From the NCBI GenBank assembly GCA_963781885.1, contig CAWAHW010000004.1, positions 195,940 through 259,939 of the forward strand: DNA of 64,000 nucleotides, in the 5' to 3' direction. Of the stretch, positions 4,158-50,374 are shown piece by piece. The stretch is from an uncultured Spirochaetota bacterium (GTDB lineage: Bacteria; Spirochaetota; Spirochaetia; SZUA-6; Fen-1364). The notes beneath the pieces were generated by a model, which did not search any database, was not told the origin of the DNA, and worked only from the letters and a program-made list of their open reading frames with translations. The position numbers were made by a program, and so were the translations under genes. Numbering within the stretch: the first letter of the stretch is position 1; each line of letters starts with the position of its first letter.

Positions 4158-4287
4158 GCCCCTTGGATCGTTCATCCCGTGGAGTGATTTGCGGCCTATT
4201 GCAACCACGTAAAAAAGTGCTAAAAAACCAGGACCGCTTCCAGAAGCCCGCCTGCGTTTTTTAGACACCGTTCCATCATCCAGGAGG

Positions 4288-5457
4288 GTGTTTTCAGTGA
4301 GCCAGAGAAAAGATTATGTCTTCACGTCCGAAAGCGTCGGCGAGGGCCATCCGGACAAGGTCTGCGACCAAATCTCGGATGCCGTCCTCGACGAGGCGCT
4401 GCGCCAGGACCCCACGTCCCACGTCGCCTGTGAGAGCTTCACCACGACGGGCCTCGTCCTTGTCGGAGGGGAGATCACCACGACCGGCTACATCGACCTT
4501 CCCGTGCTCGTGCGCGGCGTGCTCAAGGGTATCGGGTACACGGACCCGTCCTACGGAATCGACTTCGAATCCTGCTCCGTCATCTCCACCATCCAGAGGC
4601 AGTCCCCCGACATCGCCCAGGGGGTGAACGGCACGGGCCTCCACCACGAGATGGGCGCCGGCGACCAGGGTATGATGTTCGGCTACGCCTGCACGGAGAT
4701 GCCCAACCTCATGCCGGCCCCGATCAGCCTCGCCCACAGCATCATGCGCACCGCGTCGGTTGCCCGCAAGAACGGCACGCTGTCCTTCCTGCGGCCCGAC
4801 GGCAAGTGCCAGGTGACGGTGCAGTACATCGACGGCAAGCCCGCGCACGTGACGACGGTCGTCCTCTCTCACCAGCATTCTGAGGAGATCGGCCACAAGG
4901 AGCTGGAAGAATCCCTCATCGAGACGGTGATCAAGAAGTCCATCCCCGCCTCGCTCCTCAACGGCAAGACCGTGTACCACATCAATCCGACGGGGCGCTT
5001 CGTGATCGGCGGGCCGCACGGCGACTCGGGCCTCACGGGACGAAAGATCATCGTCGACACCTACGGCGGCATGTCGCGCCATGGCGGCGGCGCCTTCTCC
5101 GGCAAGGACCCGTCCAAGGTGGACCGTTCGGCATCATACATGGCCCGCTACGTTGCAAAGAACGTCGTGGCCGCGGGCCTCTGCGAGCGCTGCGAGGTGC
5201 AGGTGGCTTACGCCATCGGCATCGCCAAGCCCGTCTCCCTTTACGTCTCCACGTTCGAAACGGGCAAGGTGCCTGATGAGAAAATCGAAAAGGCGGTCGC
5301 CGAGGTATTCGACCTTACCCCGCAGGGCATCATCACGACGCTTGACCTCCTGCGCCCGATCTACCGCGAGACCTCCAACTACGGCCACTTCGGCCGTGAA
5401 GGCTTCTCCTGGGAGAAGACCGACAAGGTGGAGGCCTTGAAGGCAAGGCTGGGCTGA
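4288..5457 (+). CDS. metK: S-adenosylmethionine synthetase
   Basis: GEGHPDK, GAGDQG(M)MFGYA and the C-terminal MetK signature. 389 aa. Confidence 0.92.
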
Positions 5458-8324: not shown

Positions 8325-8397
8325 TCCCCTGTAGCTCAGTCGGTAGAGCGGGTGGCTGTTAACCACTAGGTCGCTGGTTCGAGTCCGGCCGGGGGAG
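8325..8397 (+). tRNA. tRNA-Asn (anticodon GTT)
   Basis: Cloverleaf drawn by hand: 7-bp acceptor TCCCCTG/CGGGGGA, D-arm TAGCTCAGTCGGTAGAGC, anticodon stem-loop GGTGG-CTGTTAA-CCACT, T-arm GCTGG-TTCGAGT-CCGGC. CCA is not encoded. Confidence 0.85.
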
Positions 8398-8403
8398 CGA
8401 AAG

Positions 8404-12753: not shown

Positions 12754-14523
12754 ATGAAACACAACACATCATCGCCTCTGGTCATTGCAGTCTTCGTTAC
12801 GGCGCTGGCAATGTTGGCGGGGGCGACTTTCATCAACACCCGGATTACCCTGCGTCACATAGACGTCGACAGGCTCTATGTCGCGAGCCGCGCCCGACTC
12901 ACTTCGATCCAGGAGCTTAAATCGATCGTGCTCACGGCCGTGATCGCGGAAAGAAACTTCATCCTCAGCGGGAACGATCAGGATCTCCAGCCGTACGAAC
13001 AGGCAAAGGCGGATGCGCGGGTGCAGGTTGAAAAAATCGACCCCCTGATCGACGATGCTTCCCCTCAACAGTCGGACCTCGACGAATTACGAAGCCTTTT
13101 TCAGGAAAAATTCGCCGCCCTTGACGAGATGATCGCCATGCGGCGGGCTCATGGGATCGGGCGCGAGGTGACGAGCATCCTCGTGGACAGAAGCATACCG
13201 CTTCTCACCAAGATCGATGCCGCGGAAGGCATCATGCAGAACGCTGAGGCAGCAACGCTCCAGCAACTGGAGAATCGTTCGTCGGACAGCGTTTATCTGT
13301 CCCTTGCCGTCTCATCCGGCGGCAGCGCCCTTGCTTTGCTGCTCCTTGTACTCGCCTTCGTCATGCTGGAACGGGAAATCGTGCGGCGACGCGTCACCGA
13401 AGCGGGCCTTGTCGAGGCAAAACAGGTCGCCGATGCCGCGAATCGGGCGAAAAGCGAATTCCTGGCCAATATGAGTCACGAGATCAGGACCCCCATGAAC
13501 GCGATCTTGGGTTTTGCCGAGCTCTTGGGGGAATCGGCTTCGGCGGGCATCAAGGACAAGAGCAACATCGACGGGATCAAAACGGCGGGAAAAAGCCTCA
13601 TGATCATCATCAACGACATCCTGGATCTCTCCAAGATCGAGGCGGGCCGCCTGGATATTCGGCTCGAGCCGGTGAGCCTCCCGAGCCTGCTGCGCGACGT
13701 GGAGCGGATCTTCTCCGTGGCGGCGGCACGAAAGAAGCTCGATTTCCGCCTTACAATCGCCCGTGGGATACCCGATGTCCTCCGCCTCGACGAGGTGAGA
13801 TTGCGCCAGGTGCTCTTCAATCTGCTGGGGAATGCCATGAAATTCACGGACAAGGGTTCGGTCGGCGTCGCCGTCACAATGACGGGTCAGGTCTTACCGG
13901 CCAACCTCATCGACCTGGAAATCGATGTGATCGATACGGGCATCGGCATCGCCGCCGCCGACCAAGAGGCGATCTTCGAGCCTTTTCGCCAGGCGTTCCA
14001 GGGAGAGCGCCGATTCGGCGGAACGGGTCTCGGGCTTGCGATCAGCCGCAGGCTCGTGGCGGCGATGGGTGGATCGCTCTCGGTGCGGAGCGAGATCGGT
14101 CGAGGCTCCCTGTTCCGCGTCCGTCTTCCGGGGGTACAGGCGGCCGTGGGAATCGAGCCCGGCGCGGGAGGCGGCGGTCCCGCTCAAATCCCCCCTGAGA
14201 GCGCGATCCCTGTTCCCTCCGTTGCCCCCCTCATTCTCCTTTTCATCGAGCAGACGAGGAAAGCCGGTCCGCTCCGCGATGCCATCGGTTCCGCCATGCG
14301 CGAGGAAATTCTTCCTGAGCACAAGAGGCTGAAGATCACCCTCGAGGTCAAGGCCGTCCGCGCATGGTGCCTCCGGCTGCAAGAGCTCTCTGGCTCATGG
14401 GGATGCCCTGCTCTGGCGGATTTCGCCAGCACGCTCGAATCGTACGCCGACAGTTATCAGATCAACGAGATCGTCGGGTGTCTTCGAGAATTCAACGCCG
14501 TCCTCGAGGAGTTCACGCCATGA
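12754..14523 (+). CDS. sensor histidine kinase with periplasmic CHASE3-like domain
   Basis: N-terminal TM, CHASE3-like region, second TM, HisKA (EFLANMSHEIRTPMN), HATPase (GTGLGLAI). Promoter-like TTGACAGGCCC upstream. Confidence 0.8.
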   Translation: MKHNTSSPLVIAVFVTALAMLAGATFINTRITLRHIDVDRLYVASRARLTSIQELKSIVLTAVIAERNFILSGNDQDLQPYEQAKADARVQVEKIDPLIDDASPQQSDLDELRSLFQEKFAALDEMIAMRRAHGIGREVTSILVDRSIPLLTKIDAAEGIMQNAEAATLQQLENRSSDSVYLSLAVSSGGSALALLLLVLAFVMLEREIVRRRVTEAGLVEAKQVADAANRAKSEFLANMSHEIRTPMNAILGFAELLGESASAGIKDKSNIDGIKTAGKSLMIIINDILDLSKIEAGRLDIRLEPVSLPSLLRDVERIFSVAAARKKLDFRLTIARGIPDVLRLDEVRLRQVLFNLLGNAMKFTDKGSVGVAVTMTGQVLPANLIDLEIDVIDTGIGIAAADQEAIFEPFRQAFQGERRFGGTGLGLAISRRLVAAMGGSLSVRSEIGRGSLFRVRLPGVQAAVGIEPGAGGGGPAQIPPESAIPVPSVAPLILLFIEQTRKAGPLRDAIGSAMREEILPEHKRLKITLEVKAVRAWCLRLQELSGSWGCPALADFASTLESYADSYQINEIVGCLREFNAVLEEFTP

Positions 14524-15668
14524 TCGAGGCCGCCACAGAGGTCTTCCCCCACGCCACGGAATTCCGCGTCCTCATCGTGGATGACGTGCCCGACAACCTC
14601 AAGATCATCGGTGGCATCCTCGATGGGAAGGGAGTCGATCTCAGCTTCGCGACCAGCGGCGCCCAGGCCTTGGAGAGCGCCCAGGTCACCCATCCCGACC
14701 TTGTCCTCCTCGACGTGGCGATGCCCGAGATGGACGGCTACGAAGTGGCGCGGAGGTTCAAGACGACCGACGGCCTCTCCGACATCGCGGTGATTTTCAT
14801 CACGGCGCGCGCCCATTCTCAGGATGTTCTGGACGGTTTCCGCGCCGGCGCGGCCGACTACATCACAAAACCGTTCAACGCGGCCGAGCTTCTGGCGCGC
14901 GTCTTTACACACCTCGAGCTCAAGAAATCGCGGGATACCATTCGTCACCAGAACGAGGGCCTGCGCGCATCCAACGCCGCCAAGGACAGGCTCCTTTCCA
15001 TCATTGCCCATGATTTGAAAAACCCATTGCATGGGCTCATCGGCATTTCCGAGCTGCTGCTCGATATGGGTGACGGCATGGATGGCGCCTTGCGGAAGGG
15101 ACACCTGACTTCCCTGAACGCAACGGCCCGACAAATGGCAAAATCCCTTCGTGAGCTTCTGGATTGGGCCAAAGTGCAGAGCGGCGCCATTGAATGGAAA
15201 CCGGAAGAGTTCATGCTGGCATTCATCGTTGAAGAATCGATCCTCCTCATGCAGAGCGCGGCAACCGCAAAGGAGGTCGCCGTGACGAACCGCATCGCGA
15301 GCGAGGAAAAGGTATTCGCTGATCCAATCATGATCCTCACGGTTGTCCGCAATCTCCTGCAAAACGCGATCAAGTATTCCAGACGCGGTGGCGAAGTCAC
15401 CATTTCCGCTGAGAATGTCGTTGATGACAGCGTTCGGATCATGGTCGGCGACACGGGTATAGGCATGCATCCCGCCCTCGTCACCTCCCTCCTCAAGAAT
15501 GATTCGCTTGCGTCGCGACCGGGGACCGAAGGCGAGCTGGGGACTGGACTCGGACTCAAGTTCTGTTGGGAGTTCCTATCGACGCATAGAACCACCCTCC
15601 AAGTGAAAAGCGAAGAGGGAAAAGGGACGACGTTCTCATTCGTGCTGCCTCGCAGGAAAAAAGAATAG
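14520..15668 (+). CDS. hybrid response regulator-histidine kinase (REC-HisKA-HATPase)
   Basis: REC domain (LIVDDVPDNL...DVAMPEMDGY...ADYITKPF), then HisKA (IIAHDLKNPL) and HATPase (DTGIGM, GTGLGL). ATG overlaps the upstream TGA (ATGA). The track ORF start at 14364 is an overextension. Confidence 0.8.
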   Translation: MIEAATEVFPHATEFRVLIVDDVPDNLKIIGGILDGKGVDLSFATSGAQALESAQVTHPDLVLLDVAMPEMDGYEVARRFKTTDGLSDIAVIFITARAHSQDVLDGFRAGAADYITKPFNAAELLARVFTHLELKKSRDTIRHQNEGLRASNAAKDRLLSIIAHDLKNPLHGLIGISELLLDMGDGMDGALRKGHLTSLNATARQMAKSLRELLDWAKVQSGAIEWKPEEFMLAFIVEESILLMQSAATAKEVAVTNRIASEEKVFADPIMILTVVRNLLQNAIKYSRRGGEVTISAENVVDDSVRIMVGDTGIGMHPALVTSLLKNDSLASRPGTEGELGTGLGLKFCWEFLSTHRTTLQVKSEEGKGTTFSFVLPRRKKE

Positions 15669-15713
15669 ATTCGGATCCGCCTTCGCGCGGCTGCCGGTTC
15701 AGCGCCCTGCTGT

Positions 15714-16832
15714 CTACTCCACCTCGTCGGGCCTGACCTCCTCCCCGGTGGCCGCGGACTGAAGAGCCGCCAGGGTGAACTGGAGGACTGCCTTGCCTGC
15801 GGGGCCGTCCAGCTTGGGTTTCCCGCGGCCATGAAGCGCATCGATGAGATTGTGGGTCGCGGCAATGAACCCATCGTGCCATTCCTCTCCCTCAACGGGT
15901 ATGGCCTTTGTCTCTCCACCCTTGAACAGCATGAGCGCGGGAAGGTCAACGGTCCTTGCCGTGTAGCGATTGATGAAGATGATGCCCTTTTCACCGATCA
16001 CTTCGATGCGATCGTCGTCCGTGTAGTACTGGGAATTGATGCACATCTTCGGCGTGTACTCCACGTCCAGGAATCCATAGCGACGCGCTGCCTTGTACTG
16101 GAACATGATCGCGGCCGGCGCATCGATCCGCACGGTGCCGGCCGTGTCCTTGACCGCGGTTCCATCGATCCAGGCAAAGACCTTTTCCACGGGCCCTCCC
16201 AGGAAGTACCCCACGGAGAAAAGGTGGTAGCCGTGATCGAACACCAGCGGCCCGCCGCCGCACTGCTTCTTGTTGAAGCGCCAGAGCCATGCGCTGAGAG
16301 GCACTTTCCATCCCGTGTTTTCCGTTCCCGTATTCACGTGCATCCGCACGGCGCGGACTTCTCCGATCTCCCCGGCGTCGATCATCTCCTTTGCGCGGAC
16401 CGCGGGGGCGTAGCAGGCGAAGGTCTCGAAGACCCGGAGCACGACTCCGGCCTTGCGTGCCGCGTCGATCATCTCATCCGCTTCCGCGGCGGACAGCGCC
16501 ATGGGCTTCTGCACGGAGACGTGCTTGCCCGCCCGGCAGGCCGCCACGCTCATGGAGCAGTGCAGGTGGTGCGGTGTCAGCAGCTCCACCACGTCCACCT
16601 CCGGGTCCCGCAGCACCTGTTCGTAGTCGGTGTAGACCCTGTCCACGCCCCATGCCTTTGCCTTTTCCGCGGCATGTGCCCGGCTCGTGTCGCACACCGC
16701 CATTATTTTCGCGTCCTCCCTCCCCTGGTAACCGAGCCGATGCAGGTCCGAGATCCTTCCACACCCGACAATGGCAACGCCCAGTGGCTTGGTTCGCGTC
16801 GAAAGCCTGGAAACTCTGACTGCAGTGGCCAT
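15714..16832 (-). CDS. Gfo/Idh/MocA-family NAD(P)-dependent oxidoreductase
   Basis: Rossmann motif VAIVGCGRIS, EKP-like motif VSVQKPMA, family-typical length of 372 aa. Confidence 0.85.
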   Translation of the reverse strand: MATAVRVSRLSTRTKPLGVAIVGCGRISDLHRLGYQGREDAKIMAVCDTSRAHAAEKAKAWGVDRVYTDYEQVLRDPEVDVVELLTPHHLHCSMSVAACRAGKHVSVQKPMALSAAEADEMIDAARKAGVVLRVFETFACYAPAVRAKEMIDAGEIGEVRAVRMHVNTGTENTGWKVPLSAWLWRFNKKQCGGGPLVFDHGYHLFSVGYFLGGPVEKVFAWIDGTAVKDTAGTVRIDAPAAIMFQYKAARRYGFLDVEYTPKMCINSQYYTDDDRIEVIGEKGIIFINRYTARTVDLPALMLFKGGETKAIPVEGEEWHDGFIAATHNLIDALHGRGKPKLDGPAGKAVLQFTLAALQSAATGEEVRPDEVE

Positions 16833-16835
16833 GGT

Positions 16836-17468
16836 CTACTCCTTTGAAATGGATCGAACTGAAGACTCCAGTCGCGGGTCCGCGCCAAGAGAGGCGCGAA
16901 GCACGGGAAAAAAAGCGGGGAAAGTAAGCGCCGGACGGACGACCTCCGCGGGAAGGGACGTCACGATGTCGGCCATGGCGCGGTGGGTGATTCCCGAGAC
17001 TTCCTTCAACAATGCTCTGCCGCGGCGCTGCGGCTCTGCACGGCCGGCGGGATAACCCGCACCGGCATCTGCCGTGAAAAGGTTGTCGAAGATGAGCCTC
17101 AGGTTGATGTCGCCTGCCCAGCCATATCCCTGATTCAGGGCAAGAGAGACGCAATTGCCCGCGTTGATGCGGGAAAAAAGCCACGCATCCAGGGGAGAGA
17201 GCAAATGGCCGCAGCAGACGCCGGGGTATTGCATGACTGAGTTCATATAGCCGATCCCGGTTCCGCAGCCGCCGATCACGAAGTCCACGGCGCCCAGATG
17301 CAGGAGCAGGGCGGACATCAGGCCCGTGTGGACATAGAGAAGCTCGGGCGACTGGCCGCTCTGCGTGTTCCCAAGGTTCAGGACCTCCAGCCCCCGGCCT
17401 TCCAGCGCCTTCACAATGTCCGCGTTCCTGTCGGCAGCGCTCGTTTCGTTGATGACGGCGACTCTCAT
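16836..17468 (-). CDS. RpiB/LacA/LacB-family sugar-phosphate isomerase
   Basis: FVIGGCGTGIGYMNSVMQYPGVCCGHL matches the RpiB active-site region (catalytic Cys). Confidence 0.7.
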   Translation of the reverse strand: MRVAVINETSAADRNADIVKALEGRGLEVLNLGNTQSGQSPELLYVHTGLMSALLLHLGAVDFVIGGCGTGIGYMNSVMQYPGVCCGHLLSPLDAWLFSRINAGNCVSLALNQGYGWAGDINLRLIFDNLFTADAGAGYPAGRAEPQRRGRALLKEVSGITHRAMADIVTSLPAEVVRPALTFPAFFPVLRASLGADPRLESSVRSISKE

Positions 17469-18418
17469 GACCGGCTCCCCTTCCTCCTGTCCATGGCGCG
17501 GCGCGCCGAAACGGCGATCTGCTCAATGGACAAGCCGCAGGCATCCATGAGCGTGTCCAGATTGCGCCCGGTCGGGCAGAAGACGTCCTGGATTCCCACC
17601 CGTTCGACCGGAACGGGAACGGAGGCGGCAAGCGCTTCCGTCACCGCGCCGCCCAGGCCGCCGATGATCGAATGCTCCTCCGCGGTCACGATCGCTCCCG
17701 TTTCCTCCGCGGCACGGATGATCAGCGCCTGGTCCAGCGGCTTCAGCGTGTGCAGCTCCAGGACGCGCGCCTGGATGCCCGCGCGGCCAAGCAGGTCCGC
17801 CGCCGCGAGGCAGCGCCCGGTCATGGCGCCCGTGGCAATCAAGGTGACGTCCCCGCCGTCGCGCAGGCAGAGCCCCGCGCCGATTCGAAGCGGCGTGCCC
17901 GGCCTGTAGACCGGCAAGGCGGGGGCGCGGCTGATCCGCAGGTAGACCGGACCGTCGTGTTCCGCGGCCAGTGGTACAAAGGCCGCTGCTTCCTGCGCGT
18001 CCGCGGGAACGATGACGGTCATGTTGGGCAGCGCCCGCATGTTCGCCAGGTCCGTGATGGAATAGTGCGTTGCCCCGTCCTTGAAATCGGAAATGCCGGC
18101 GTAGCTTGCGGCGATCTTGACGTTGGTCCTTGCATAGCAGACGCACGTCCGCACCTGCTCCAGCGCGCGAAGGGAAAGAAGGGAGGCAAATCCGTTCGCG
18201 AACGGAATGAAGCCCCCCAGCGCCAGGCCTGCCGCCACGTCGATCATGCAGGGCTCCGCGATCCCAATATTGAGAAATCGATCGGGGTGGCGCACCGCGA
18301 AGAACTTCGAAAGCGTCGAGGCCGACGTGTCCACGTCCAGGGCCACGACCTTCGGGTTGCCGTCCGCGTATTCGGCAAGCGCCTTCCCGTATGACTCGCG
18401 CATGGAAGGCTCAGGCAT
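17465..18418 (-). CDS. transketolase, C-terminal subunit (pyrimidine-binding + C-terminal domains)
   Basis: Start MPEPSMRESYGKALAEYA at 18418 (the track ORF is over-extended). Typical split-Tkt B-subunit motifs. Overlaps the N-subunit stop (ATGCCTGA). Confidence 0.85.
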   Translation of the reverse strand: MPEPSMRESYGKALAEYADGNPKVVALDVDTSASTLSKFFAVRHPDRFLNIGIAEPCMIDVAAGLALGGFIPFANGFASLLSLRALEQVRTCVCYARTNVKIAASYAGISDFKDGATHYSITDLANMRALPNMTVIVPADAQEAAAFVPLAAEHDGPVYLRISRAPALPVYRPGTPLRIGAGLCLRDGGDVTLIATGAMTGRCLAAADLLGRAGIQARVLELHTLKPLDQALIIRAAEETGAIVTAEEHSIIGGLGGAVTEALAASVPVPVERVGIQDVFCPTGRNLDTLMDACGLSIEQIAVSARRAMDRRKGSRS

Positions 18419-19259
18419 CGTCCGGCTCCTCTCCCAATTCACGCAGGGCCTGGCGCAACTCGTGGTCCGAAGGAACGTTGCCGTGCCAGGAGCTCTGGTT
18501 CTCCATGAAGGAGACTCCCTTTCCCTTGGTGGTCTTTGCAATGACGATGCTGGGCCGGTCCCCCTTTTTCGCGGCGCTTTCCAGCGCGCTGATGAGAGAA
18601 CCGGTGTCGTGTCCGTTGCATGGAATGACGTTCCATCCGAAAGCGGCCCACTTGTCGGCAAGGGGCTCGAGGGGCATGACGTCATGCACGAATCCGTCGA
18701 GCTGCACGTCGTTGTTGTCCAGGATCACCGTCAGGTTGGAGAGCTTGAACTTGGCCGCCGACATGGCGCCTTCCCAGATGATGCCGGCCTGCGACTCGCC
18801 GTCGCCAATCAGGACATAGGTCCGATAGTCCATTCCCTTCCACCGAGCGGCGAGCGCCAGACCTGCCCCCACGGCGATACCGTGTCCAAGGATGCCGCTC
18901 GTCATGTCCACCCCCGGTGTCTTCAGCCTGTCGGGATGGCTCTGGTGCGGGCAGCCCACCTCTCCCCAATCATTCAGGGATGACGGAGCGAAGAATCCGC
19001 GCCGGGCGAGGGCCGCATACAGCGCCGCCGACGCGTGTCCCTTTGAGAGAATGAACCTGTCGCGCTCCTCCCAGAGAGGCAGCGCAGGATCCAGACGCAT
19101 GACGCGGAAGTACAGGACTGCAAGGATTTCCGCCGCGGAGAGGGCGCCCCCGGGATGCCCCGCGCCGCGTCGATGGATCATGCGCAGACTGTCCACCCTG
19201 AGCAGGCGGGCCATCTCGTCAAGGTCGCACATCTTTTCTCCCTCTCCGCGCGGGGACAT
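18411..19259 (-). CDS. transketolase, N-terminal subunit (TPP-binding)
   Basis: GHPGGALS, LSKGHA, GDGESQAG TPP-binding motifs. 282 aa. Confidence 0.85.
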   Translation of the reverse strand: MSPRGEGEKMCDLDEMARLLRVDSLRMIHRRGAGHPGGALSAAEILAVLYFRVMRLDPALPLWEERDRFILSKGHASAALYAALARRGFFAPSSLNDWGEVGCPHQSHPDRLKTPGVDMTSGILGHGIAVGAGLALAARWKGMDYRTYVLIGDGESQAGIIWEGAMSAAKFKLSNLTVILDNNDVQLDGFVHDVMPLEPLADKWAAFGWNVIPCNGHDTGSLISALESAAKKGDRPSIVIAKTTKGKGVSFMENQSSWHGNVPSDHELRQALRELGEEPDDA

Positions 19260-19262
19260 TCG

Positions 19263-21111
19263 CTAGAGTCCTATCTCATGCCGGAGCGCCTGGACCGAGT
19301 CGCACCATGGACCCACATTCCAGCGCCCCCAGACTCCCATGCCGCCCAGCGGGTCTGCGCCGAAGTACACGGGAACGTGGACGAGCGAGAGTCCCGGGTG
19401 CCTGCCCGCTTCCACCAGCGCCGCGCGAAGGGCTTCTGGTGTCCGGCCGCCGTCCACCGCGCGCACGCCGGGAACGGACCGTGCCCAGGCAAGGTAGTCC
19501 ACCTTCAGCGTGTTCCAGGTCGCAAATCCCCTGCCGTACTGATCGTTCTGCAGACCGGTGATGGCACCCATCCTGCCGTTGTCCAGCAGGACGATGCAGC
19601 CGCGCGCGCCATGCTCCGCGCCGTCGATCAGGACCTGGGGATTCATCGTGAAGGAGCCGTCACCGGTAAAAGCCACAGCGGAGAAGGGCTTGTCCGCCGC
19701 CGCGGTTGCAAGAAGCGCGGACACGGCGAATCCCATGTAGGATGCCCCGGCCTCCGTCAGCGTGACGCCCGGGCTCTTCATCCTCCACCACCTGAAAGCC
19801 GTTGGCCTGCACGTCCCCCGCGTCGAAGAAACACACGGCACCACGCTCCCGGGCCCACGATGCCGCGATCCCGATGACAGCAGGCTGGGTGAGCACGGGC
19901 CCGGCCCAGTACTCGTCCTTCAGCACGGGGTTGCTGAACCTCTGTCTCTTGAAGTCCTGCCATTCGGCCTTCTTCTGTGCGCAGGAGTCCGCCCAGCCCC
20001 CGCGTGCAAAGCCTCCGCCAAGCGCCTGGTTGAGCCTCCCCAGCGTGCGCTCCGCGTCCCCGACGAGCGCGAGCGAGTGGCGGTAATGCGTAGCGTCCTC
20101 GAAATCCGCGTTGATATTGATCACGCGCTTCACGTTCGGATAGCCCGTGCGGGAGCAGTCTGACTGGCAGACGGCGCGCGTGCCCACGGCCACCAGAAGG
20201 TCCGCGTTCTCCATGGCGTGGTTCCCGCAAAGGGAGCCCTTTGAGCCGCCCACGCCCATGCACTGCGGGTGCGAATAGGGAATGCAGCCGGAGGCGATGG
20301 GCGTGAAGACCAGGACTCCACCCGACAACTCCAGCAGCTTCTCCAGTTGGGCGCGCGCCGTCCTGCCGCCTCCGCCCACCTTGACCAGCACCCGTTGGGC
20401 ATCGCGGATCCACCCCGCGGCCGTCTCGTAGTCGCCGTTGGCGGCGGCCAAGGCGGTTGCGCCTGTCGCGGAAGGAATCTCCGGAAGCTCGGCGGTGTTG
20501 AACCCACGGATCAGCGTGGACTGGGTGTTCAAGGGAAGAAGGAGGTAGAACGGAGTGGGCCGATACGGATGGTCCACGGCCGCCGCGCCTCGCTGAAGCG
20601 CAGTGGACAGGGCAAGAGGAGTATGGAGGCTGTACGCCCTGCCCATTGTCGCGGCCAGCCGCAGGAAAAGTCCCTGCTCGGGCCGGGGGACCTGCTGCAT
20701 GTTATAGCCTTCGTCCTCCGTGGTTTCGTCCCCCATGAGGTACCAGACGCCAACTCCGTCCGATGCCGGGGCGATCGAAGCTGCCAGGGCCTGCAGCGCG
20801 CCGGGACCGATGGAGGTGACAACCGCGGCCTTCTCTCCCGTTGCCCACCGCAAGGCCATGGCGGCGTGGGAGGCTTCGATTTCATTACGGACCGCGAAGA
20901 CCCTGGCCAGACCTGCTTCCTGGTAGACCCGAAGGACTTCGCCGATCTCCGTGGAGCCATGCCCGAAGACCGCGAAGTACTTCCTCACTCCCAGTCGGAG
21001 CAGGCCGAGCACGAGCGCCTCGGACAGGGTGACGTCCACCCGTGCCGGCAGCGTCCCACCCTGTGCCAGAGATCGCGCGCGTGCCAGTCGTTCTGCTCCT
21101 GCATCGTGCAT
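19263..21111 (-). pseudogene. thiamine-pyrophosphate-dependent enzyme (acetolactate synthase / IolD / sulfoacetaldehyde acetyltransferase superfamily), single frameshift near 19780-19800
   Basis: Pyr and middle domains in ORF 19660-21111. TPP-binding C-terminal domain (GASYMGFAV...TGDGSF...LDNG) in ORF 19263-19844, other frame. The junction maps to a CCC/CC homopolymer (gaagagcccggg). Confidence 0.6.
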
Positions 21112-21119
21112 GCCGTCTC

Positions 21120-21863
21120 CTATCGCGGCCCGGAGGCCTGACGCTCCCCGAGCGCCTTTCCGACTTCCACCGCGATGGCCGCCAACTCAGGCAGGCGCTG
21201 CGGCGTCATCCGCGTGGCGGGACCCGAGATGCCCATGGAGCCTACGACCCTTCCCCTGAAGTCCACCACCGACACCGCAATACAGCGGATGCCGAGGTCG
21301 AACTCCTCGTCGTCCACGGCGTAGCCCTGGCGTCTCACTTCCCCGAGCTCGCGCTCCAGTGCGGCAGGATCCGTGATGGTGCGTTCCGTGTAGGATTCCA
21401 GCGTCTCGGGCATCGGGATGTCCGTGAAAGCAAGCAGCACCTTGCCCAGCGCCGTGCAATGAAGCGGCCCTGTCTGCCCGACCTGTACGTTCACCCGGAG
21501 CGTTGCCGGAGATTCGACCTGGTCGATATAGAGCGCCTTGCCCCGCGACTCCAACGCAAGGTGCGCACACTCCCCCGTGCGTTCCATGAGCTGCCGGAGG
21601 AAGGGCTTGGCCGCCTCCCGCCACGGAAGCCGCGCAAGCACGCTGCGGCTCAGTGTGACCACCCGCGGACCAAGATGGTAACGCCGGGTCGCCTCGTCCC
21701 GTTCGACATAACCGTTATGCGCGAGCGTTGAGGCAAGCCGCGAGGCGCTCGCCTTGTCCACGCCGAGGGCGTCCGCCAGCGCGGTCACCGAGGTGCCTTC
21801 CGGCGCCTGGGAGAGCAGGTCGAGGATGTTGAGGCCACGCGTAAGTGACTGAATCTCTGTCAT
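21120..21863 (-). CDS. IclR-family transcriptional regulator
   Basis: N-terminal HTH (LNILDLLSQAPEGTSVTALADALGVDKASASRLASTL) and C-terminal IclR effector domain. Start MTEIQSL at 21863. Confidence 0.85.
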   Translation of the reverse strand: MTEIQSLTRGLNILDLLSQAPEGTSVTALADALGVDKASASRLASTLAHNGYVERDEATRRYHLGPRVVTLSRSVLARLPWREAAKPFLRQLMERTGECAHLALESRGKALYIDQVESPATLRVNVQVGQTGPLHCTALGKVLLAFTDIPMPETLESYTERTITDPAALERELGEVRRQGYAVDDEEFDLGIRCIAVSVVDFRGRVVGSMGISGPATRMTPQRLPELAAIAVEVGKALGERQASGPR

Positions 21864-21869
21864 CGTTGC

Positions 21870-21898
21870 GCATAATACAACAGGCATGAGTATTATGC
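21870..21898. promoter_or_regulatory. perfect 9-bp inverted repeat GCATAATAC-N11-GTATTATGC immediately upstream of the IclR gene (candidate operator)
   Basis: Read directly from the sequence. Arms at 21870-21878 and 21890-21898. Confidence 0.4.
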
Positions 21899-21929
21899 AA
21901 CAAAAATCGCCCAATAGGGCAAGCAGAGC

Positions 21930-23962: not shown

Positions 23963-24802
23963 TCAGACCCCGCGCCTTCGGGGCAGATCCGACGTGGCTT
24001 CCGCCTCTGCCTCGCCGAAACCGCCCCAGAGACGGTGAATCGCGCGCATGGCCAAGCCCCGCGGGACCAGACGGCCGACCATGGCCAGCACCCGGTTGCA
24101 GAAACCCGGGATAATGATCGCCTTGTTGCGCGTGACGCCCTCCAACGCGGTGCGCGCGATATGCCCGGGAGTCAGACAGAACAGGCGCGGCAGGAAGCCG
24201 AGCTTGTCCACGTAGTCTCCGACGGCAGCGGTCGTCTTGAAGGCGTTCGGACAGAGAACGCTCACGCCGATTCTGCCGGAAAGCTCCTCCCGCACGGCGA
24301 GGCTGAAATTGAGAACGAAGCTCTTGGTCGCCGAATAGACGGAAAGGGAAGGCATCGGGAAGAAGGCGCCGAGACTCCCGACATTCAGGATATGAGCGCT
24401 CTCGAGGCCCTCGAATTCGGCAACGAAGAACCGCGTCAGGCGGACGAGGGCGATCGTATTCAATTGCATGACCGATTCTTCATAGTCGATGGCGGAATCC
24501 GCGAACGGCCCCACCGCCCCGATGCCGGCGTTGTTGACAAGGAGGTCGATATCGAGCCCTTTCGATCGAATCATTTCGATGAGGCGATCGAGTGTGGCGC
24601 TGTCCGTCAGGTCGGCCTCCAGCCAGTCGACCGAGACGCCGTGTTCCCGAGCGATCGAATCGCTCAATTCGGGCAGTCCACTGCCCGGCAGCGCCACGAG
24701 CAGAAGATCCATGCCGCGGGCGGCGCACTCTCGAGCGAAGGCCCTGCCAAGCCCAAGGCTCGCACCGGTGATCAGCGCGCAATTGTATGTTTTGCCAGAC
24801 AT
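23963..24802 (-). CDS. short-chain dehydrogenase/reductase (SDR)
   Basis: TGASLGLG cofactor motif, NNAG, catalytic Y-x3-K (YSATK). Start MSGKTYN at 24802. Confidence 0.85.
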   Translation of the reverse strand: MSGKTYNCALITGASLGLGRAFARECAARGMDLLLVALPGSGLPELSDSIAREHGVSVDWLEADLTDSATLDRLIEMIRSKGLDIDLLVNNAGIGAVGPFADSAIDYEESVMQLNTIALVRLTRFFVAEFEGLESAHILNVGSLGAFFPMPSLSVYSATKSFVLNFSLAVREELSGRIGVSVLCPNAFKTTAAVGDYVDKLGFLPRLFCLTPGHIARTALEGVTRNKAIIIPGFCNRVLAMVGRLVPRGLAMRAIHRLWGGFGEAEAEATSDLPRRRGV

Positions 24803-24916
24803 TTTTCCCCTCGTGCCGCGTTTACTCAGGATGGACATCTCAGGCTATTACACTATCAAACACCGCGGCGTCATCGATATGCCCCCTGCCCGGGCGGCGC
24901 ATCCTTTGCGGGTGAC

Positions 24917-24925: not shown

Positions 24926-26578
24926 CAGCAATTCTAACTATGGGTCTGTACGGGACGCAATGCCGTAGATTACCGGGAACGCCCGTCTAGTATTCGCTAT
25001 GAGTTGCATGCCGTACACTTGCCCTCAGAATGTCAGGAGGGGAGACGTTTGAGGCCCTGATGTCCCTTCTCATGGGATGCGTCGAGAGGTTTCCAGATCG
25101 ACGAACGGGCAAGAATACGCAGTTCTCCCTTGAAGATGTGACGCGCGGGGCTTTCGGAGTGTTCTTCTGTCAGAGTCCCTCCTTTCTGGCCTTCCAAGAG
25201 TTGATGCAGCAACAGCAGGGTAAGAACAACGCACGGAGCCTTTTTGGGGTCCAGCAGATTCCCTCGGACAACCAGATCAGAGCCTTGTTGGACCCCGTGG
25301 ATCCCTCACTGTTGAATGCAGTCTACGAGAAGTGTTTTGATCTGATGCAGCAGCGCGGGCTTATGCAACCGATGAGGTCCTTTGCCAACTCGCTTCTGGT
25401 GGCCTTGGACGGCACAGGGTATTTCCTGTCGGAATCCATCCACTGTCCCTCCTGCATGGTAAGCAATCACCGTGACGGACGAGTCACCTACACACACTCC
25501 GTGCTGCTTCCCGCGGTGGTCAGTCCCCAACAGGCCCATGTGGTGGCGCTGCAGCCGGAGTTTCTCAGTCCCCAGGATGGCCATGATCGGCAGGACTGCG
25601 AGTTTCAAGCGGCCCTGCGCTGGATCGAGCGCTACGCTGCGCGATTGAGCCCCTTAGGAGTGACGCTGCTGGGAGATGACCTGTATTCGCGAACCCCCAT
25701 CATCACTCGCGCCGTGCAGCAGGAGCTGGATTTCATCTTTGTTGCCAAGCCGGTCATGCACAAGCACTTGTTTGAGGAGATTGAGGGCTTGGAGAAACTG
25801 GGCGGGGTGCACACCCTGCAACGCAGCGCCTGGACAGGTAAGGATCACCGTCACTACCACTACCGCTGGATCAACGATGTCAGCCTGACCGCCGAGAAGG
25901 ATAGCCCGGTGGTCTCATGGGTGGAATTGCAGATTCTCGACGACAAGGGCAAGGTCACTTATCGCAACTGCTGGGTCACCAGCCACCCCATCAGCGAACA
26001 GACGGTGGTGGAGGTGGTGAACGCGGGTCGATGCCGCTGGAAGGTTGAGAACGAGAACTTCAACACACTGAAGACGAAGGGATACCACTTCGAGCACAAT
26101 TTCGGCCATGGCCAGCAGTATCTGTCGCAGACACTGCTATCGCTGAATGTGATTGCCTTTCTTTTTCACACCCTTTTACAGCTCATGGATAGCCGCTGTG
26201 CCCTGCTTCGCTCGACACTGCCGCGTCGGGATACCTTTTTTCAACACGTTGCCACACTGACCCAGTATCTGTGCTTTGACAGTTGGGTGGCTCTGATGCA
26301 GTTCATGGTGAATGGGCTGCACCTGCCTGACCCAGACGGATAGTTCACCGATCCTGCCTGCCTTCATAACACCCCTACAGAACCACCCTCCCTCCTGCGT
26401 GGCCAACCTTGGACGGGTGCTTGCTGTAAGTCCCCTTCCGCGCCTCACAACTCCGGCGGACCTCCATTCAAACTTTCTCCTCCACCAAAGTCCTAATCCC
26501 GGATTCCCACCTGGGCGCATATACGCCATAGATTCCCTCATGCCAACCAAACGTCTTTGGCCATAATGCGAATTGCTG
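24926..26578 (+). mobile_element. insertion sequence (1653 bp) with imperfect 20-bp terminal inverted repeats (CAGCAATTCtaacTATGGgt / CAGCAATTCgcatTATGGcc), IS4/ISNCY-like
   Basis: IRs begin with 5'-CA. 14/20 match. Single transposase ORF inside. Flanked by a 9-bp direct repeat. Local GC is lower than the surroundings. Confidence 0.6.
25030..26343 (+). CDS. DDE transposase (IS4/ISNCY-like family)
   Basis: 437 aa. The motif RWKVENENFNTLKTKGYHFEHNFGHG is typical of this transposase group. The family is assigned from memory and was not searched. Confidence 0.75.
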   Translation: MSGGETFEALMSLLMGCVERFPDRRTGKNTQFSLEDVTRGAFGVFFCQSPSFLAFQELMQQQQGKNNARSLFGVQQIPSDNQIRALLDPVDPSLLNAVYEKCFDLMQQRGLMQPMRSFANSLLVALDGTGYFLSESIHCPSCMVSNHRDGRVTYTHSVLLPAVVSPQQAHVVALQPEFLSPQDGHDRQDCEFQAALRWIERYAARLSPLGVTLLGDDLYSRTPIITRAVQQELDFIFVAKPVMHKHLFEEIEGLEKLGGVHTLQRSAWTGKDHRHYHYRWINDVSLTAEKDSPVVSWVELQILDDKGKVTYRNCWVTSHPISEQTVVEVVNAGRCRWKVENENFNTLKTKGYHFEHNFGHGQQYLSQTLLSLNVIAFLFHTLLQLMDSRCALLRSTLPRRDTFFQHVATLTQYLCFDSWVALMQFMVNGLHLPDPDG

Positions 26579-26829: not shown

Positions 26830-27318
26830 ATGGCCGACCAGGTTTTCCGTCCACAGGCTTTCGAAGACGTCGAAGACGCCGGCTTGTCCGAGGCGGACTC
26901 GATGCTGCAGCGGGAAGGGGAAATGGACAAGACACTGGGAGACGCCACTCAGCAAGTGAGCATCGAGGCGGAACGGGACATGGACACCTGCCCATTCGAC
27001 ATGGGAATCTCACAACCCCGCGCAATCAGCCTTCTCAAACTCTGTGAGCTGTGCGCGCAGCCGGTCCCGGCCCAGATTGCCGCGACCGTCGGCACGTCCC
27101 GATGTCCTTTCCTGCTCATCCACCAGGTAACTCCGTTCAGCAAGTTTGGATACCCCCCCACGCGCGTGTGGGGGCTGGGCTACCAGGTGGACAATCTCGA
27201 TGCGGGTCTCGTGCCGGTTGATTTTGCGCCTCGCAGCGAGTTCTTGGAAGTCGGTGGGTGGGCGACCGACATGAAGCTCGGCGTCGCGGCGGACGGCAGT
27301 TTCAGCCTGGATCCGTAG
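26830..27318 (+). CDS. hypothetical protein (162 aa, acidic N-terminus, Cys pairs CPFD / CELC / CPF)
   Basis: ORF in the same orientation as and tightly spaced with the CHAT cluster. No recognisable domain. Confidence 0.5.
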   Translation: MADQVFRPQAFEDVEDAGLSEADSMLQREGEMDKTLGDATQQVSIEAERDMDTCPFDMGISQPRAISLLKLCELCAQPVPAQIAATVGTSRCPFLLIHQVTPFSKFGYPPTRVWGLGYQVDNLDAGLVPVDFAPRSEFLEVGGWATDMKLGVAADGSFSLDP

Positions 27319-27672: not shown

Positions 27673-29142
27673 ATGTCGGATTCGCCATCTCTGGTGCAGC
27701 TGCGAGCGTTGTGGGCTCAGAATCCCGCCGCGGCAATCCTCTTTGCGCGATTGGATCCCCAGTGCATTCCTCCGGACACCGGGCAGTATGCAGCCAACCT
27801 CCAGCGCTCAATCCAATCTCAACGCGAGACTGAACAGTCGGTGAACGCGGCTCTTGGAGCCATGGGGATATTTCCGGCGGCGTCCCCCGGCGTTGGCTAC
27901 GGCGCGACGGTCAATCCGGATGACCTCATGTTCTATGGAACCATGGGGCTCGTGAGGGCGCATCAGGGCAACCCTCCGACAAGCGACGCGTGCGCCGGTT
28001 GCGCCGCCGCGATCCTGAGAGGCCAACGCGACCCCATGGACGCGCTCGCCCTGGCGGGGAGCTCGATTCCCGGCTATGCCCAGTATATCCGGACAATCGG
28101 CGCGTTCCTGGGGAACGTTTCCCCGTTTCTGAGACAGATGGCATTCATTGTCGCGGCGCTCGCCGTTCCCCTCCAGGAGATCCCCGGGCTTCTCAATTTG
28201 AGCGCGCAGGATCGGCCGCAGAGTCTGGAGGAAATGTTCAACCGAGCCCTGCAATCGGCCGAGGAAGCGTTTGGCAGAAACGATTTCGGGCGCGCGGAAA
28301 AGGACCTCATGACGGCGCTCCAGGCGGCGAAACAGACACCAAGCCCGGATGACGACATCCTGGCGATCAAACACCTGCTGCTGCTTGCTTTCAAGTCGAC
28401 CGTGTCCGTGGATTCCCTGTCGCTTGCCACAAGCGTGGCAGGGAATCTGGTTGAGAGCAACCGATGCCTCGCGGAGGCGGCGCGAATCGTCCTTGCCCTT
28501 TCGGTCATCGCCAAGAGCTATGGCGTGGTCCGTGAGCTCGATGAACCACTGACACGCATCATCCTCAAGCTCCTGGAGTCGGAGCTGCCAGGAGAGATCG
28601 CGCTTCCACTCCACCTTGCGGGGGCGGAAGCCCAGCTGCGTCAGGGCAACACGGCGGAGGCGGAGGATATCCTGGACAACGTGCGTGGACGTTTCACGGA
28701 CGTCGACAGCCAGCTTCAGATCGCTTGCATGGATGCCTCCATTCATCGGGATAACGCTGACCGGGAAGGTGCGTCGGACATCCTGACGTGCGCGCTCCAG
28801 CACGCAGCCTCCATTGATCCGGCCCGGAGGCTCGCGGCGGTGCAGCAGCTCGTGAGCTTGTGGCCTGACGGAAAGGAGGGGCTTGCAGCCTGGCTGGACG
28901 AGCTGAAATCGTTGGCAAGCACTCTGCAAGATCCCGCGCGCAGCCTCGTCCTGGTGACATCGGCGGGCGCCCTGGTGAGAGACGGCAGAAATGAAGAAGC
29001 GGCCCATCTCGTCGCTTCGGTGGATCTGCCAAGGCTCGAGGAAATGACGCCGGACCCGATGAAGGACGTGATCCGCTCGATCCGTGAGCAGCTCGGCGCC
29101 CTGCTCCACCGCGGCGACCCAGGAAGGGACAAGACCATATAG
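27673..29142 (+). CDS. all-alpha TPR-like repeat protein (489 aa)
   Basis: Leu/Ala-rich helical repeats throughout. RBS GGGGG. Immediately precedes the CHAT-domain gene (10-nt gap). Confidence 0.55.
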   Translation: MSDSPSLVQLRALWAQNPAAAILFARLDPQCIPPDTGQYAANLQRSIQSQRETEQSVNAALGAMGIFPAASPGVGYGATVNPDDLMFYGTMGLVRAHQGNPPTSDACAGCAAAILRGQRDPMDALALAGSSIPGYAQYIRTIGAFLGNVSPFLRQMAFIVAALAVPLQEIPGLLNLSAQDRPQSLEEMFNRALQSAEEAFGRNDFGRAEKDLMTALQAAKQTPSPDDDILAIKHLLLLAFKSTVSVDSLSLATSVAGNLVESNRCLAEAARIVLALSVIAKSYGVVRELDEPLTRIILKLLESELPGEIALPLHLAGAEAQLRQGNTAEAEDILDNVRGRFTDVDSQLQIACMDASIHRDNADREGASDILTCALQHAASIDPARRLAAVQQLVSLWPDGKEGLAAWLDELKSLASTLQDPARSLVLVTSAGALVRDGRNEEAAHLVASVDLPRLEEMTPDPMKDVIRSIREQLGALLHRGDPGRDKTI

Positions 29143-29151
29143 AGGGATACG

Positions 29152-49945: not shown

Positions 49946-50365
49946 ATGGCAACCTCAAGAGCTCAACGCGTACCTGAGTTTCAAGGACAACGCCCGACAG
50001 GCGATGGAGTTCTACCATACCGTCTTCGGCGGCAAGCTGGTGATCAGCACATTCAAGGAGTTTCACGCTTCGAAGGATTCCAGCCAGGACAACCTCGTCA
50101 TGCACGCCGACCTGCAGGGCGACAACGGGATCAGTCTTCTATGCCTCCGACACCGTCAACCCGGCGGAGTACCGTCCCGCGAACGGCATCAGCATGTCGC
50201 TGGGCGGCGACAACGAAAAGGAGCTGACGGGGTATTTCAACAAGCTCAGTGCAGGCGGGAAGGTCACGATGCCCCTGGCCAAAGGCGCAGTGGGGAGACT
50301 CATTCGGCATGCTGGTCGACAAGTTCGGCATCCCCTGGATGGTGAATATCGCCGCGCCAAAGTAG
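49946..50365 (+). pseudogene. PhnB-like / VOC (glyoxalase-fold) family protein, decayed (two to three frameshifts in 420 bp)
   Basis: Segments NAYLSFKDNARQAMEFYHTVFGG, SDTVNPAEYRPANGISMSLGGDNEKELTGYFNKLSAGGKVTMPLAKGAVG and FGMLVDKFGIPWMVN lie in three different frames, in PhnB order. Confidence 0.5.
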
Positions 50366-50374
50366 GCCGCCCGC

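Follow-up and report, generated by a model that had tools for sequence, protein, structure and literature searches.

A widely conserved catabolic operon with an IolD-like enzyme, a split transketolase and a DhuI-type isomerase in an uncultured Spirochaetota bacterium

A stretch of 64,000 nucleotides from an uncultured Spirochaetota bacterium (assembly GCA_963781885.1, contig CAWAHW010000004.1; hereafter the window) carries six co-directional genes on its minus strand between positions 15714 and 21914. Open reading frames (ORFs) and Pfam and NCBIfam models identify them as an IclR-family regulator, an enzyme dependent on thiamine diphosphate (ThDP), the N- and C-terminal subunits of a split transketolase (TK-N and TK-C), a PF02502 isomerase and a Gfo/Idh/MocA dehydrogenase (Gfo). 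The cluster is a genuine operon, found in the same order in 36 loci, far beyond chance, and judged by its sequences it is a widely conserved, experimentally uncharacterised catabolic operon of known enzyme families. For its function we tentatively favour a general scheme, to which we give somewhat less than an even chance, in which Gfo oxidises the substrate, the ThDP enzyme cleaves a carbon-carbon bond, and isomerase and transketolase dismantle the product in C2 units without ATP.

Consecutive genes abut or overlap, as a preliminary description of this DNA had reported. The junctions measure +8, +3, -8, -4 and +3 nt in operon order, and Shine-Dalgarno-like motifs precede the starts of the ThDP, TK-C, isomerase and Gfo genes. 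The TK-C start is ATG 18418, which gives an 8-nt overlap with the TK-N stop, and exactly this 317-aa product is on record. Although the IclR reading frame is open as far as TTG 21914, 39 homologous loci agree on ATG 21863 (M-T-E-I-Q-S) as the start.

Conservation of the operon and exchange of its downstream module

Homologous loci were collected by a scan of one genome per species with the ThDP alignment, which gave 431 relatives. The best 80 of these were fetched with 10-kb flanks and, together with one further locus (L002), form a set of 81 loci that was analysed by tblastn with the window proteins and by clustering of neighbouring ORFs. The arrangement of the window, hereafter the TK variant, was found in 36 of the 81 loci and in four more that are cut by contig ends, with the order IclR, ThDP enzyme, TK-N, TK-C, DhuI-like isomerase, transporter of the major facilitator superfamily, Gfo. 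Anaerolineae and other Chloroflexota account for most of its hosts, and a few are Spirochaetes, Myxococcota and Dehalococcoidales. The in-operon transporter is a glycoside-pentoside-hexuronide (GPH) symporter (TIGR00792, 288 bits against a cutoff of 231). The window operon is without this gene, its isomerase stop lying 3 nt from the Gfo start; the junction is confirmed by an independent Logan contig (L001), and the symporter-less arrangement is also found in two other loci (L021 and L046).

In a second group of 15 loci, the IlvD variant, a single dehydratase stands in place of TK-N, TK-C and the DhuI-like gene, and scores above its equivalog cutoff (TIGR00110, 698 bits against 618). A third variant, with an aldehyde dehydrogenase (ALDH) and an IlvD-like enzyme, is represented by seven loci of Actinomycetes and Alphaproteobacteria. 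Here the IlvD-like enzyme lies 3' of the ThDP gene and resembles L-arabinonate dehydratase (PRK06131, 805 bits against a cutoff of 539); an SSADH-like aldehyde dehydrogenase is placed between the two genes in four of the seven loci, and a molybdenum hydroxylase-type enzyme, a Zn-dependent alcohol dehydrogenase and TctABC are often present as well.

Reduced forms also occur. Four loci have the ThDP gene followed by the DhuI-like gene with no adjacent TK-variant transketolase, and four have ThDP enzyme and Gfo only. The ThDP and DhuI-like genes adjoin directly in L007, L035, L056, L060, L063 and L065, and the minimal IclR-ThDP-Gfo or ThDP-Gfo modules are those of L083, L013, L015 and L038. The ThDP-Gfo pair of L013 (2194-11857) and L038 is appended to an L-arabinose-type operon (AraA, Zn-dependent alcohol dehydrogenase, FGGY kinase), and both loci are without transketolase, DhuI-like gene and IlvD.

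Transketolase and IlvD occur together in none of the 81 loci. A neighbour-joining tree of the ThDP enzymes mixes the TK with the IlvD variants inside the Chloroflexota crown group, and the ThDP enzyme, Gfo, GPH symporter and IclR regulator are 60-87% identical between the two variants (Gfo about 80%). Because of this identity and interleaving, the shared proteins most likely do the same job in both variants, and the swapped modules most likely work on one shared intermediate. A CoA-acylating MMSDH-type aldehyde dehydrogenase accompanies 11 TK-variant loci, including distant Myxococcota (TIGR01722, 519-546 bits against a cutoff of 448), and none of the 15 IlvD-variant loci. Among the 81 loci, neither kinases nor aldolases recur in the cluster. 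Glycosidases of GH27 or clan GH-D adjoin the ThDP gene in two Myxococcota loci.

Operator and promoter

The palindromic candidate operator that had been noticed in front of the regulator proved to be real, and more specifically a pair of elements. When the 60 nt before the IclR start were aligned for 39 loci, two tandem 15-nt pseudo-palindromic boxes of the form TTGYAT-N3-RNNCAA were found, with starts 20 nt apart, and this pair is conserved in about 35 homologous loci. Matches to TTGYAYNNNRNNCAA in the fetched loci are nearly all such 20-nt-spaced pairs directly 5' of the IclR gene. The minus strand of the window upstream of the regulator reads GTTGCATAATACTCATGCCTGTTGTATTATGCGCAACGATG. Box 1 has three mismatches to TTGTATWWTRYRCAA, and its first six bases (TTGCAT) double as a -35-like hexamer; box 2 holds a -10-like TATTAT and ends 2 nt before ATG 21863. 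In many loci a TATAAT-like hexamer lies within box 2, and 2-3 nt separate the end of the box from the ATG. The position of box 2, 2 nt from the start codon, suggests a leaderless or very-short-leader transcript.

A terminator-like hairpin of the upstream glycosyltransferase gene is found at 21907-21922, and with this hairpin and boxes of its own the operon would therefore have its own, autoregulated promoter. Since the boxes overlap the promoter, the IclR protein is predicted to repress its own operon through these putative operators. The earlier designation of the cluster as an IclR-controlled catabolic operon is supported by the regulator's PF09339 and PF01614 domains and by the conserved boxes, the regulation itself being a prediction.

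An additional operator-like box between the IclR and ThDP genes was seen in two Chloroflexota loci (L003, 3395-3409; L005, 9892-9906), and some versions of the operon may thus have a second regulated promoter. Elsewhere in the window, a palindrome with two mismatches to the operator half-sites, TTGTATATTACAAAC, lies at 62315-62331, where two short ORFs meet; the likeness is probably due to chance.

Table 1. Genes and sequence elements of the operon in the window.
Feature	Position	Strand	Remarks
IclR-family regulator	21120-21863	-	247 aa from conserved ATG; PF09339 + PF01614
IolD-like ThDP-dependent enzyme gene, frame-interrupted	19263-21111	-	PF02776 + PF00205 in frame A, PF02775 in frame B
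Transketolase N-terminal (ThDP-binding) subunit	18411-19259	-	282 aa; PF00456, 180.6 bits
Transketolase C-terminal (pyrimidine-binding + C domain) subunit	17465-18418	-	317 aa; PF02779 + PF02780
DhuI-type PF02502 ketol-isomerase	16836-17468	-	210 aa; NF006753
Gfo/Idh/MocA NAD(P)-dependent dehydrogenase	15714-16832	-	372 aa; PF01408, PF22725, PF02894
Putative operator box 1, TTGCATAATACTCAT	21886-21900	-	left half-site intact, right degenerate
Putative operator box 2, TTGTATTATGCGCAA	21866-21880	-	sole TTGYAYNNNRNNCAA match in the 64-kb window
Frameshift site, CCCGGG(C) run, 1-nt insertion	19767-19773	-	read from sequence

The interrupted ThDP gene

The ThDP gene of the window consists of two overlapping ORFs in different frames, 19660-21111 (483 aa) and 19263-19844 (193 aa). 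The longer encodes the N-terminal and central domains and is without the GDG...N ThDP motif, which is carried by the ThDP-binding C domain of the shorter. Removal of one base at the CCCGGG(C) run yields a 615-aa protein, which aligns over 97-100% of the length at 70-85% identity with homologues of about 600-700 aa (mostly 612-629), and the junction peptide, EDEEPG followed across the junction by VTLTEAGASYMGF, aligns without gaps to the family consensus EDERPGQTFTETGASYMGF.

The source assembly's own call is the 483-aa product (P0081). A homology search for an intact near-identical copy gave only this product at 100% identity, and two metagenome scans for an intact junction, one with the back-translated junction peptide and one with a 23-mer, gave no match. 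The Logan contig L001 covers 13596-17572 with one mismatch and no indel; it modestly supports the accuracy of the assembly in this span, and it ends short of the frameshift site, which lies outside. The frameshift may mark a genuine pseudogene or a homopolymer error in the assembly. Programmed frameshifting was considered and dismissed, because the homologues of about 600-700 aa are all encoded in a single frame.

Family placement of the proteins

The best model for the reconstructed ThDP protein is IolD (TIGR04377), with 154.9 bits over the full length and an E-value of 3e-45 (cutoff 715). Acetolactate synthase (ALS) models come second, with at most 118 bits and an E-value of 3e-34, and the model for sulfoacetaldehyde acetyltransferase (Xsc) reaches 65 bits against a cutoff of 620. 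The earlier suggestion that this enzyme could be Xsc-like or IolD-like is therefore supported in its second part and not in its first. The biosynthetic ALS model TIGR00118 gives 113 bits against a cutoff of 538, and no gene for an ALS regulatory small subunit was found in the cluster or in the flanks scanned with Pfam (about 1.8-15.7 kb and 21.9-36 kb of the window). Solved structures are all distant, the nearest by sequence being an ALS (E 7e-24). When the AlphaFold model of the closest listed homologue (P0001, pLDDT 69) was compared with the PDB by Foldseek, ALS, 2-hydroxyacyl-CoA lyase, pyruvate oxidase and JanthE were returned with similar scores at 16-20% identity.

The ThDP family is large, with 5025 matches at E <= 1e-20 among the candidates scored and thousands of metagenomic proteins. 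Some pipelines name these proteins IolD though they score far below the IolD threshold, and solving the operon would correct a systematic mis-annotation. JGI is a source of this name for the ThDP enzyme, and public sources name the Gfo orthologues just "predicted dehydrogenase".

The isomerase had been described as RpiB-like, and this assignment has to be revised. It matches the DhuI family model NF006753 (PRK09273) with 191.7 bits over residues 1-206, exceeding the cutoff of 137, whereas the RpiB model NF004051 yields 24 bits (cutoff 135). Of the solved structures, 4u8e (gbs1892; E 2e-45, 41% identity over 182 residues) is the closest relative of the isomerase, and RpiB structures follow at E-values of about 2e-3. 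The Cys-Gly-Thr motif, which we take to be catalytic in RpiB, is retained at the corresponding active-site position of the window isomerase (GGCGTG), where gbs1892 aligns with GCGAG. By these comparisons the protein is best classed as a relative of the DhuI-type uronate ketol-isomerases, outside RpiB proper. The S. agalactiae protein gbs1892 is DhuI (PMC6837340), and characterised DhuI isomerises a non-phosphorylated uronate. DhuI is a non-homologous analogue of KduI, which belongs with IolB in one family (PMC12838403).

For Gfo, the best full-length NCBIfam match is IolG (TIGR04380, 115.4 bits, cutoff 355), and the XylDh_Gfo6 model gives 54 bits. The best solved relatives of Gfo include 3ezy, which aligns over the full length, and, over the N-terminal part, 5ya8, which is a scyllo-inositol/L-glucose dehydrogenase. 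TK-N and TK-C match NF004559 (cutoff 488) with 287.5 bits at profile positions 13-282 and 252.7 bits at positions 317-625 of 627, and the TktA-type model TIGR00232 gives 191.9 and 67.6 bits against a cutoff of 682. By sequence the pair is accordingly placed with the generic short or split transketolases and not with TktA. The preliminary description had named kinship with housekeeping TktA, and with biosynthetic ALS accompanied by its regulatory subunit, as signs that would speak against a catabolic module; neither was seen. The best NCBIfam matches of the regulator all lie below cutoff, namely BhcR (199.7 bits, cutoff 350) and PcaR/PcaU (173), and IclR and AllR also match.

A proposed pathway and the points against it

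In the scheme that we favour, a sugar-like compound would be imported, in the usual version of the operon by the in-operon GPH-family cation symporter, and would be oxidised by the IolG-like Gfo, after which the IolD-like ThDP enzyme would cut the carbon-carbon bond adjoining the new carbonyl. The product would have an aldehyde end and an opposite end that is, most economically, a 2,3-dihydroxy-carboxylate; it would in other words be a uronate-type aldehyde-acid. The DhuI-type isomerase would convert the aldehyde end to a ketol, and the split transketolase would transfer a C2 ketol unit to a phosphorylated acceptor, e.g. glyceraldehyde-3-phosphate, in a round of isomerisation and transfer that may repeat, possibly twice. 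By this transfer to a phosphorylated acceptor, carbon would therefore reach the pentose-phosphate pool with neither kinase nor ATP. The CoA-acylating MMSDH-type dehydrogenase of 11 related loci would probably take the residual aldehyde. In the IlvD variant the dehydratase would attack the acid end of the same intermediate, and in the variant with ALDH and an IlvD-like enzyme the aldehyde would be oxidised first and dehydration would follow.

We infer the reaction order, the uronate-type intermediate and the cyclitol-like substrate; import, oxidation by Gfo and cleavage by the ThDP enzyme would be the sole ordering that gives the four shared proteins one role in all variants. IolD yields a uronate-type aldehyde-acid from a cyclic 1,2-dione, and the scheme would parallel the series IolG-IolD-IolB, with the transketolase in place of the IolC kinase and the IolJ aldolase. 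The likeness to the canonical iol pathway extends to the nearest named families, which are IolG, IolD and, in related loci, IolA/MMSDH, and to the placing of an aldehyde-to-ketol isomerase after the ThDP enzyme, as IolB follows IolD. Unlike in the iol pathway, the isomerase is of the non-homologous DhuI type, transketolase replaces kinase and aldolase, the transporter is of the GPH type and the regulator is of the IclR family instead of the IolR type. None of IolE, IolB, IolC and IolJ was found in the window cluster or as a recurrent gene in the homologous loci. A weak hint of a cyclitol or cyclitol glycoside comes from the MelB-like symporter family and from the GH27 and clan GH-D glycosidases of the two Myxococcota loci. 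The cyclitol-to-uronate version of the scheme is, in our judgement, a possibility to be held with considerable doubt, and the caution of the preliminary description, that the substrate cannot be assigned from sequence alone, stands.

The precedent for a kinase-free, iterated cleavage by isomerase and transketolase is the sulfoglycolytic transketolase (sulfo-TK) pathway (PMC9594981, PMC12890257). The two would share their likely logic, in which an aldose is isomerised to a ketose, a C2 unit passes to a phosphorylated acceptor, perhaps more than once, and the residual aldehyde is handed to a dehydrogenase. One may speculate that an ATP-independent pathway, common among Anaerolineae and sporadic in further phyla, opens a cyclitol-type or similarly oxidised substrate and forms the carboxylate counterpart of sulfo-TK, its downstream module having been repeatedly exchanged for IlvD or for ALDH and a dehydratase; in this full form the proposal is doubtful. 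The operon could prove to be nature's second instance of sugar dismantling by a transketolase without a kinase, and solving it would attach a carbon source to those Anaerolineae that are abundant in digesters, peat, soils and groundwater and poorly represented in culture. Its conserved operator and its downstream modules, which are interchangeable, offer clear experimental handles.

Several observations weigh against the favoured scheme. Neither the ThDP enzyme nor Gfo comes near its cutoff (IolD and IolG, respectively), and other chemistry may be involved, e.g. decarboxylation of a 2-keto acid or acyloin cleavage; the fold search, which started from the mediocre P0001 model, fails to separate the ThDP families or to point to a substrate. 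A single dehydrogenase is not an obvious source of the 1,2-dione needed by an IolD-type hydrolase, and no IolE-like dehydratase is conserved in the cluster among the homologous loci. GPH transporters usually carry glycosides, pentosides and hexuronides, not free cyclitols. The minimal ThDP-Gfo modules, including those on the L-arabinose operon, are left unexplained, and the partners in Alphaproteobacteria (molybdenum hydroxylase-type enzyme, Zn-dependent alcohol dehydrogenase, TctABC) are very different. The frameshift of the window copy may be an assembly error, in which case the copy is possibly functional. Finally, our literature searches found no published description of the gene combination.

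Alternative readings

An oxidative sugar or sugar-acid route is an alternative that we consider unlikely, though it accounts well for the dehydratase variants. Gfo would form an aldonate from an aldose or a 2-keto-aldonate from an aldonate, a dehydratase would convert it to a 2-keto-3-deoxy acid, and the ThDP enzyme would decarboxylate the latter to an aldehyde one carbon shorter; this aldehyde would be oxidised by ALDH, or isomerised and cleaved by the DhuI-like enzyme and transketolase. Both the IlvD variant (GPH, Gfo, IlvD, ThDP) and the variant with the order ThDP, ALDH, IlvD-like would then be complete linear pathways, and the second is accompanied by sugar-acid-type transporters and has an IlvD of the L-arabinonate-dehydratase-like kind. 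Gfo-family pentose 1-dehydrogenases exist (compare the 54-bit match to XylDh_Gfo6), the ThDP enzyme has its second-best relatives among ALS-type 2-keto-acid enzymes, and L013 and L038 carry the ThDP-Gfo pair on an L-arabinose operon. Pathways of the Weimberg and Dahms types likewise employ the families seen in the IlvD and ALDH variants, i.e. Gfo-type aldose dehydrogenase, IlvD/Edd and aldehyde dehydrogenase, but they are without a ThDP enzyme or transketolase, and the window variant is without a dehydratase.

The same gap argues against the decarboxylating route as a whole, since the commonest and deepest-branching version of the operon, which is that of the window, would form no 2-keto-3-deoxy acid because it has no dehydratase. 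Moreover, a 2-deoxy aldehyde could not be isomerised to a ketol for transketolase, and Gfo would need differing roles in the variants though it is about 80% identical across them and the ThDP enzymes are interleaved.

A sulfo-sugar route, which the preliminary description had among its candidates, is very improbable. Sulfoquinovose or one of its glycosides would enter through the GPH symporter, isomerase and transketolase would release sulfoacetaldehyde, and this would be disposed of by an Xsc-like ThDP enzyme or by the CoA-acylating aldehyde dehydrogenase. The E. coli sulfoquinovose importer YihO is itself a member of the GPH family, which would suit such a route. The core of sulfo-TK was named correctly in that description, as it consists of a split transketolase, SqwGH, and a PF02502 isomerase, SqwI, without a kinase (PMC9594981). 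The operon resembles it in the split transketolase beside a PF02502 isomerase, in the lack of a kinase and in its occurrence in anaerobes. Sulfo-TK itself is known from anaerobes including Spirochaetes, one variant having a CoA-acylating aldehyde dehydrogenase, and IlvD/Edd dehydratases participate in the sulfoglycolytic Entner-Doudoroff pathway (PMC9594981, PMC12890257).

The further equipment of sulfo-TK is missing, however. The pathway also needs SqvD (FucI family, PF02952), usually SqvB (PF16161), and the exporter SqwE; sulfoacetaldehyde is disposed of by the reductase SqwF or by SqwD and SqwKL, and a sulfoquinovosidase is usually present too (PMC9594981, PMC12890257, PMC11659671). Neither PF02952 nor PF16161 was found in the cluster or the scanned flanks, and neither is recurrent in the 81 loci. 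SqwF (PF00465), SqwD with SqwKL, and SqwE are likewise absent from the window cluster and flanks and do not recur in the homologous loci, which are without a CoA ligase or exporter. The search for a nearby sulfoquinovosidase that had been proposed found none, of the GH31 YihQ type or of the SqgA type (a short-chain dehydrogenase/reductase, SDR), among the scanned window ORFs, and no sulfoquinovosidase model is matched by the GH27 or clan GH-D enzymes of two Myxococcota loci or by the clan GH-D glycosidase beside the ThDP gene of L063.

The proteins that are present also differ from those of sulfo-TK. The isomerase is of the 210-aa DhuI subfamily, the regulator is of the IclR type, the ThDP enzyme scores 65 bits with Xsc against 155 with IolD, and this invariant IolD-like enzyme and the equally invariant Gfo are without a sulfo-TK counterpart, which leaves Gfo without a role. 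Gfo was considered as an NAD-dependent sulfoquinovosidase and rejected, because the known enzyme of this kind, SqgA, belongs to the SDRs and not to the Gfo family (PMC10755693). The operon thus resembles sulfo-TK in its mechanism and is not a member of that system.

Membership in the erythritol and apiose systems, which had also been named, is unsupported because those routes need kinases and the cluster contains none. The isomerase fails the sequence comparison with the RpiB/EryI type of the erythritol system (NF004051, 24 against 135 bits). The apiose transketolase pathway has a sugar kinase and a TIM-barrel apiose isomerase beside its split transketolase, and neither was found in the cluster or as a recurrent gene in the homologous loci. 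Kinases of this kind were likewise absent from the scanned flanks and from the recurrent neighbours in the homologous loci, and the flanks gave no aldolase either. The operon also shares with the DhuI-DhuD/KduI-KduD system for unsaturated uronate (DHU) an isomerase of DhuI's NCBIfam family, but in the operon this isomerase stands with a transketolase and a ThDP enzyme, with no KdgK or KdgA. No DhuD/KduD-type SDR reductase is present in the operon; the nearest SDR gene, at 23963-24838, lies beyond the glycosyltransferase gene and is not syntenic elsewhere. The earlier interpretation was in short right in kind, as regards a regulated catabolic module with sulfo-TK-like logic, and wrong on family membership.

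A glyoxylate or C2-C3-acid module like gcl-hyi-glxR, in which the ThDP enzyme makes tartronate semialdehyde from glyoxylate by carboligation and the DhuI-like enzyme turns this into hydroxypyruvate, an excellent and classical transketolase donor, or Gfo reduces it to glycerate for dehydration to pyruvate by IlvD, is about as improbable: each conserved enzyme would have a formal role in both main variants, and the best matches of the regulator are BhcR (199.7 bits), IclR and AllR, which are of types that respond to glyoxylate, but the Gcl model gives about 43 bits on the N-terminal part of the ThDP enzyme and is not among the 25 best models when the whole protein is used, C2 acids are unlikely cargo for a GPH glycoside symporter, and ALDH followed by an IlvD-like enzyme is a misfit, tartronate not being a 2,3-dihydroxy acid.

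Origin and condition of the window copy

The named matches of the window's MetK at 84-88% identity are all from metagenome-assembled genomes of Spirochaetia. The cluster proteins show other affinities. They are 83-87% identical to those of L083, a metagenome contig with IclR, ThDP enzyme and Gfo only (IclR 83%, Gfo 87%), and 75-82% identical to those of L084, a complete TK-variant cluster (TK-N 82.5%). With Chloroflexota loci the identity is 59-79% (60-71% for IclR against the Chloroflexota cluster regulators), and with the spirochaete copies L047 and L053 it is 54-64% only. The window ThDP enzyme nests in the Chloroflexota crown group of the tree, and the GC content of the cluster is 0.649 against 0.587 and 0.603 in its flanks. 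Because the cluster is closer to Chloroflexota than to spirochaete copies, nests in the crown group and has a higher GC content, the straightforward reading of these comparisons is that the Spirochaetia organism acquired it horizontally from Chloroflexota.

As assembled, the window copy is probably not fully functional, because its ThDP gene is frameshifted, the operon contains no transporter and box 1 is degenerate. For the genome of the window the message is a narrower one, namely that of a horizontally acquired and possibly decaying copy.

The nearby transporter for which a search had been suggested was not found in the operon or its near flanks, and a GPH symporter gene does occur farther away in the window, at 51921-53357. 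It forms a minus-strand pair with a CrtI-like FAD oxidoreductase gene (50139-51917). With 44-56% identity (mostly about 50%), the oxidoreductase is related to a family that stands, paired with a GPH gene, beside the ThDP operon in at least 14 Chloroflexota loci, and the two window genes may be part of the same catabolic system. In front of the window pair, no operator box was found. It is adjoined by genes for a DUF2804 protein (53285-54460, plus strand) and a BNR/sialidase-like repeat protein (54524-56260, minus strand), neither of which has an NCBIfam match.

Other features of the window

The flanks of the operon encode sensor kinases, a GT4 glycosyltransferase, an Fe-S protein and an SDR, and no genes for sugar uptake or sugar cleavage were found in the parts scanned with Pfam. 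A match to the SAM-II (long-loop) riboswitch at 4173-4233 on the plus strand (45.5 bits, gathering threshold 44) lies directly 5' of the S-adenosylmethionine synthetase gene (4288-5457), and the sole tRNA gene of the window, tRNA-Asn (GTT), is found at 8325-8398 on the plus strand.

On the other side of the operon, a CHAT-domain (caspase-like) protein is encoded at 29152-30867 on the plus strand, preceded by a 489-aa ORF without a Pfam match (region 27673-30867) and, farther upstream, by ORFs without matches at 25030-26343 and 26830-27318; the region could be a defence or signalling module. Two minus-strand ORFs of 1044 and 335 aa at 44242-48317, both without a Pfam match, overlap by 67 nt, which could reflect a second frameshift or a natural overlap. 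At 40979-42742 (minus strand) a transporter of the major facilitator superfamily is fused to a C-terminal SnoaL-like domain, an unusual architecture. An ORF with an HNH_2 endonuclease domain at 36641-37726 on the minus strand lies in a stretch of lower G+C content (0.58-0.59 over 36-40 kb), and may be a mobile or defence-related remnant.

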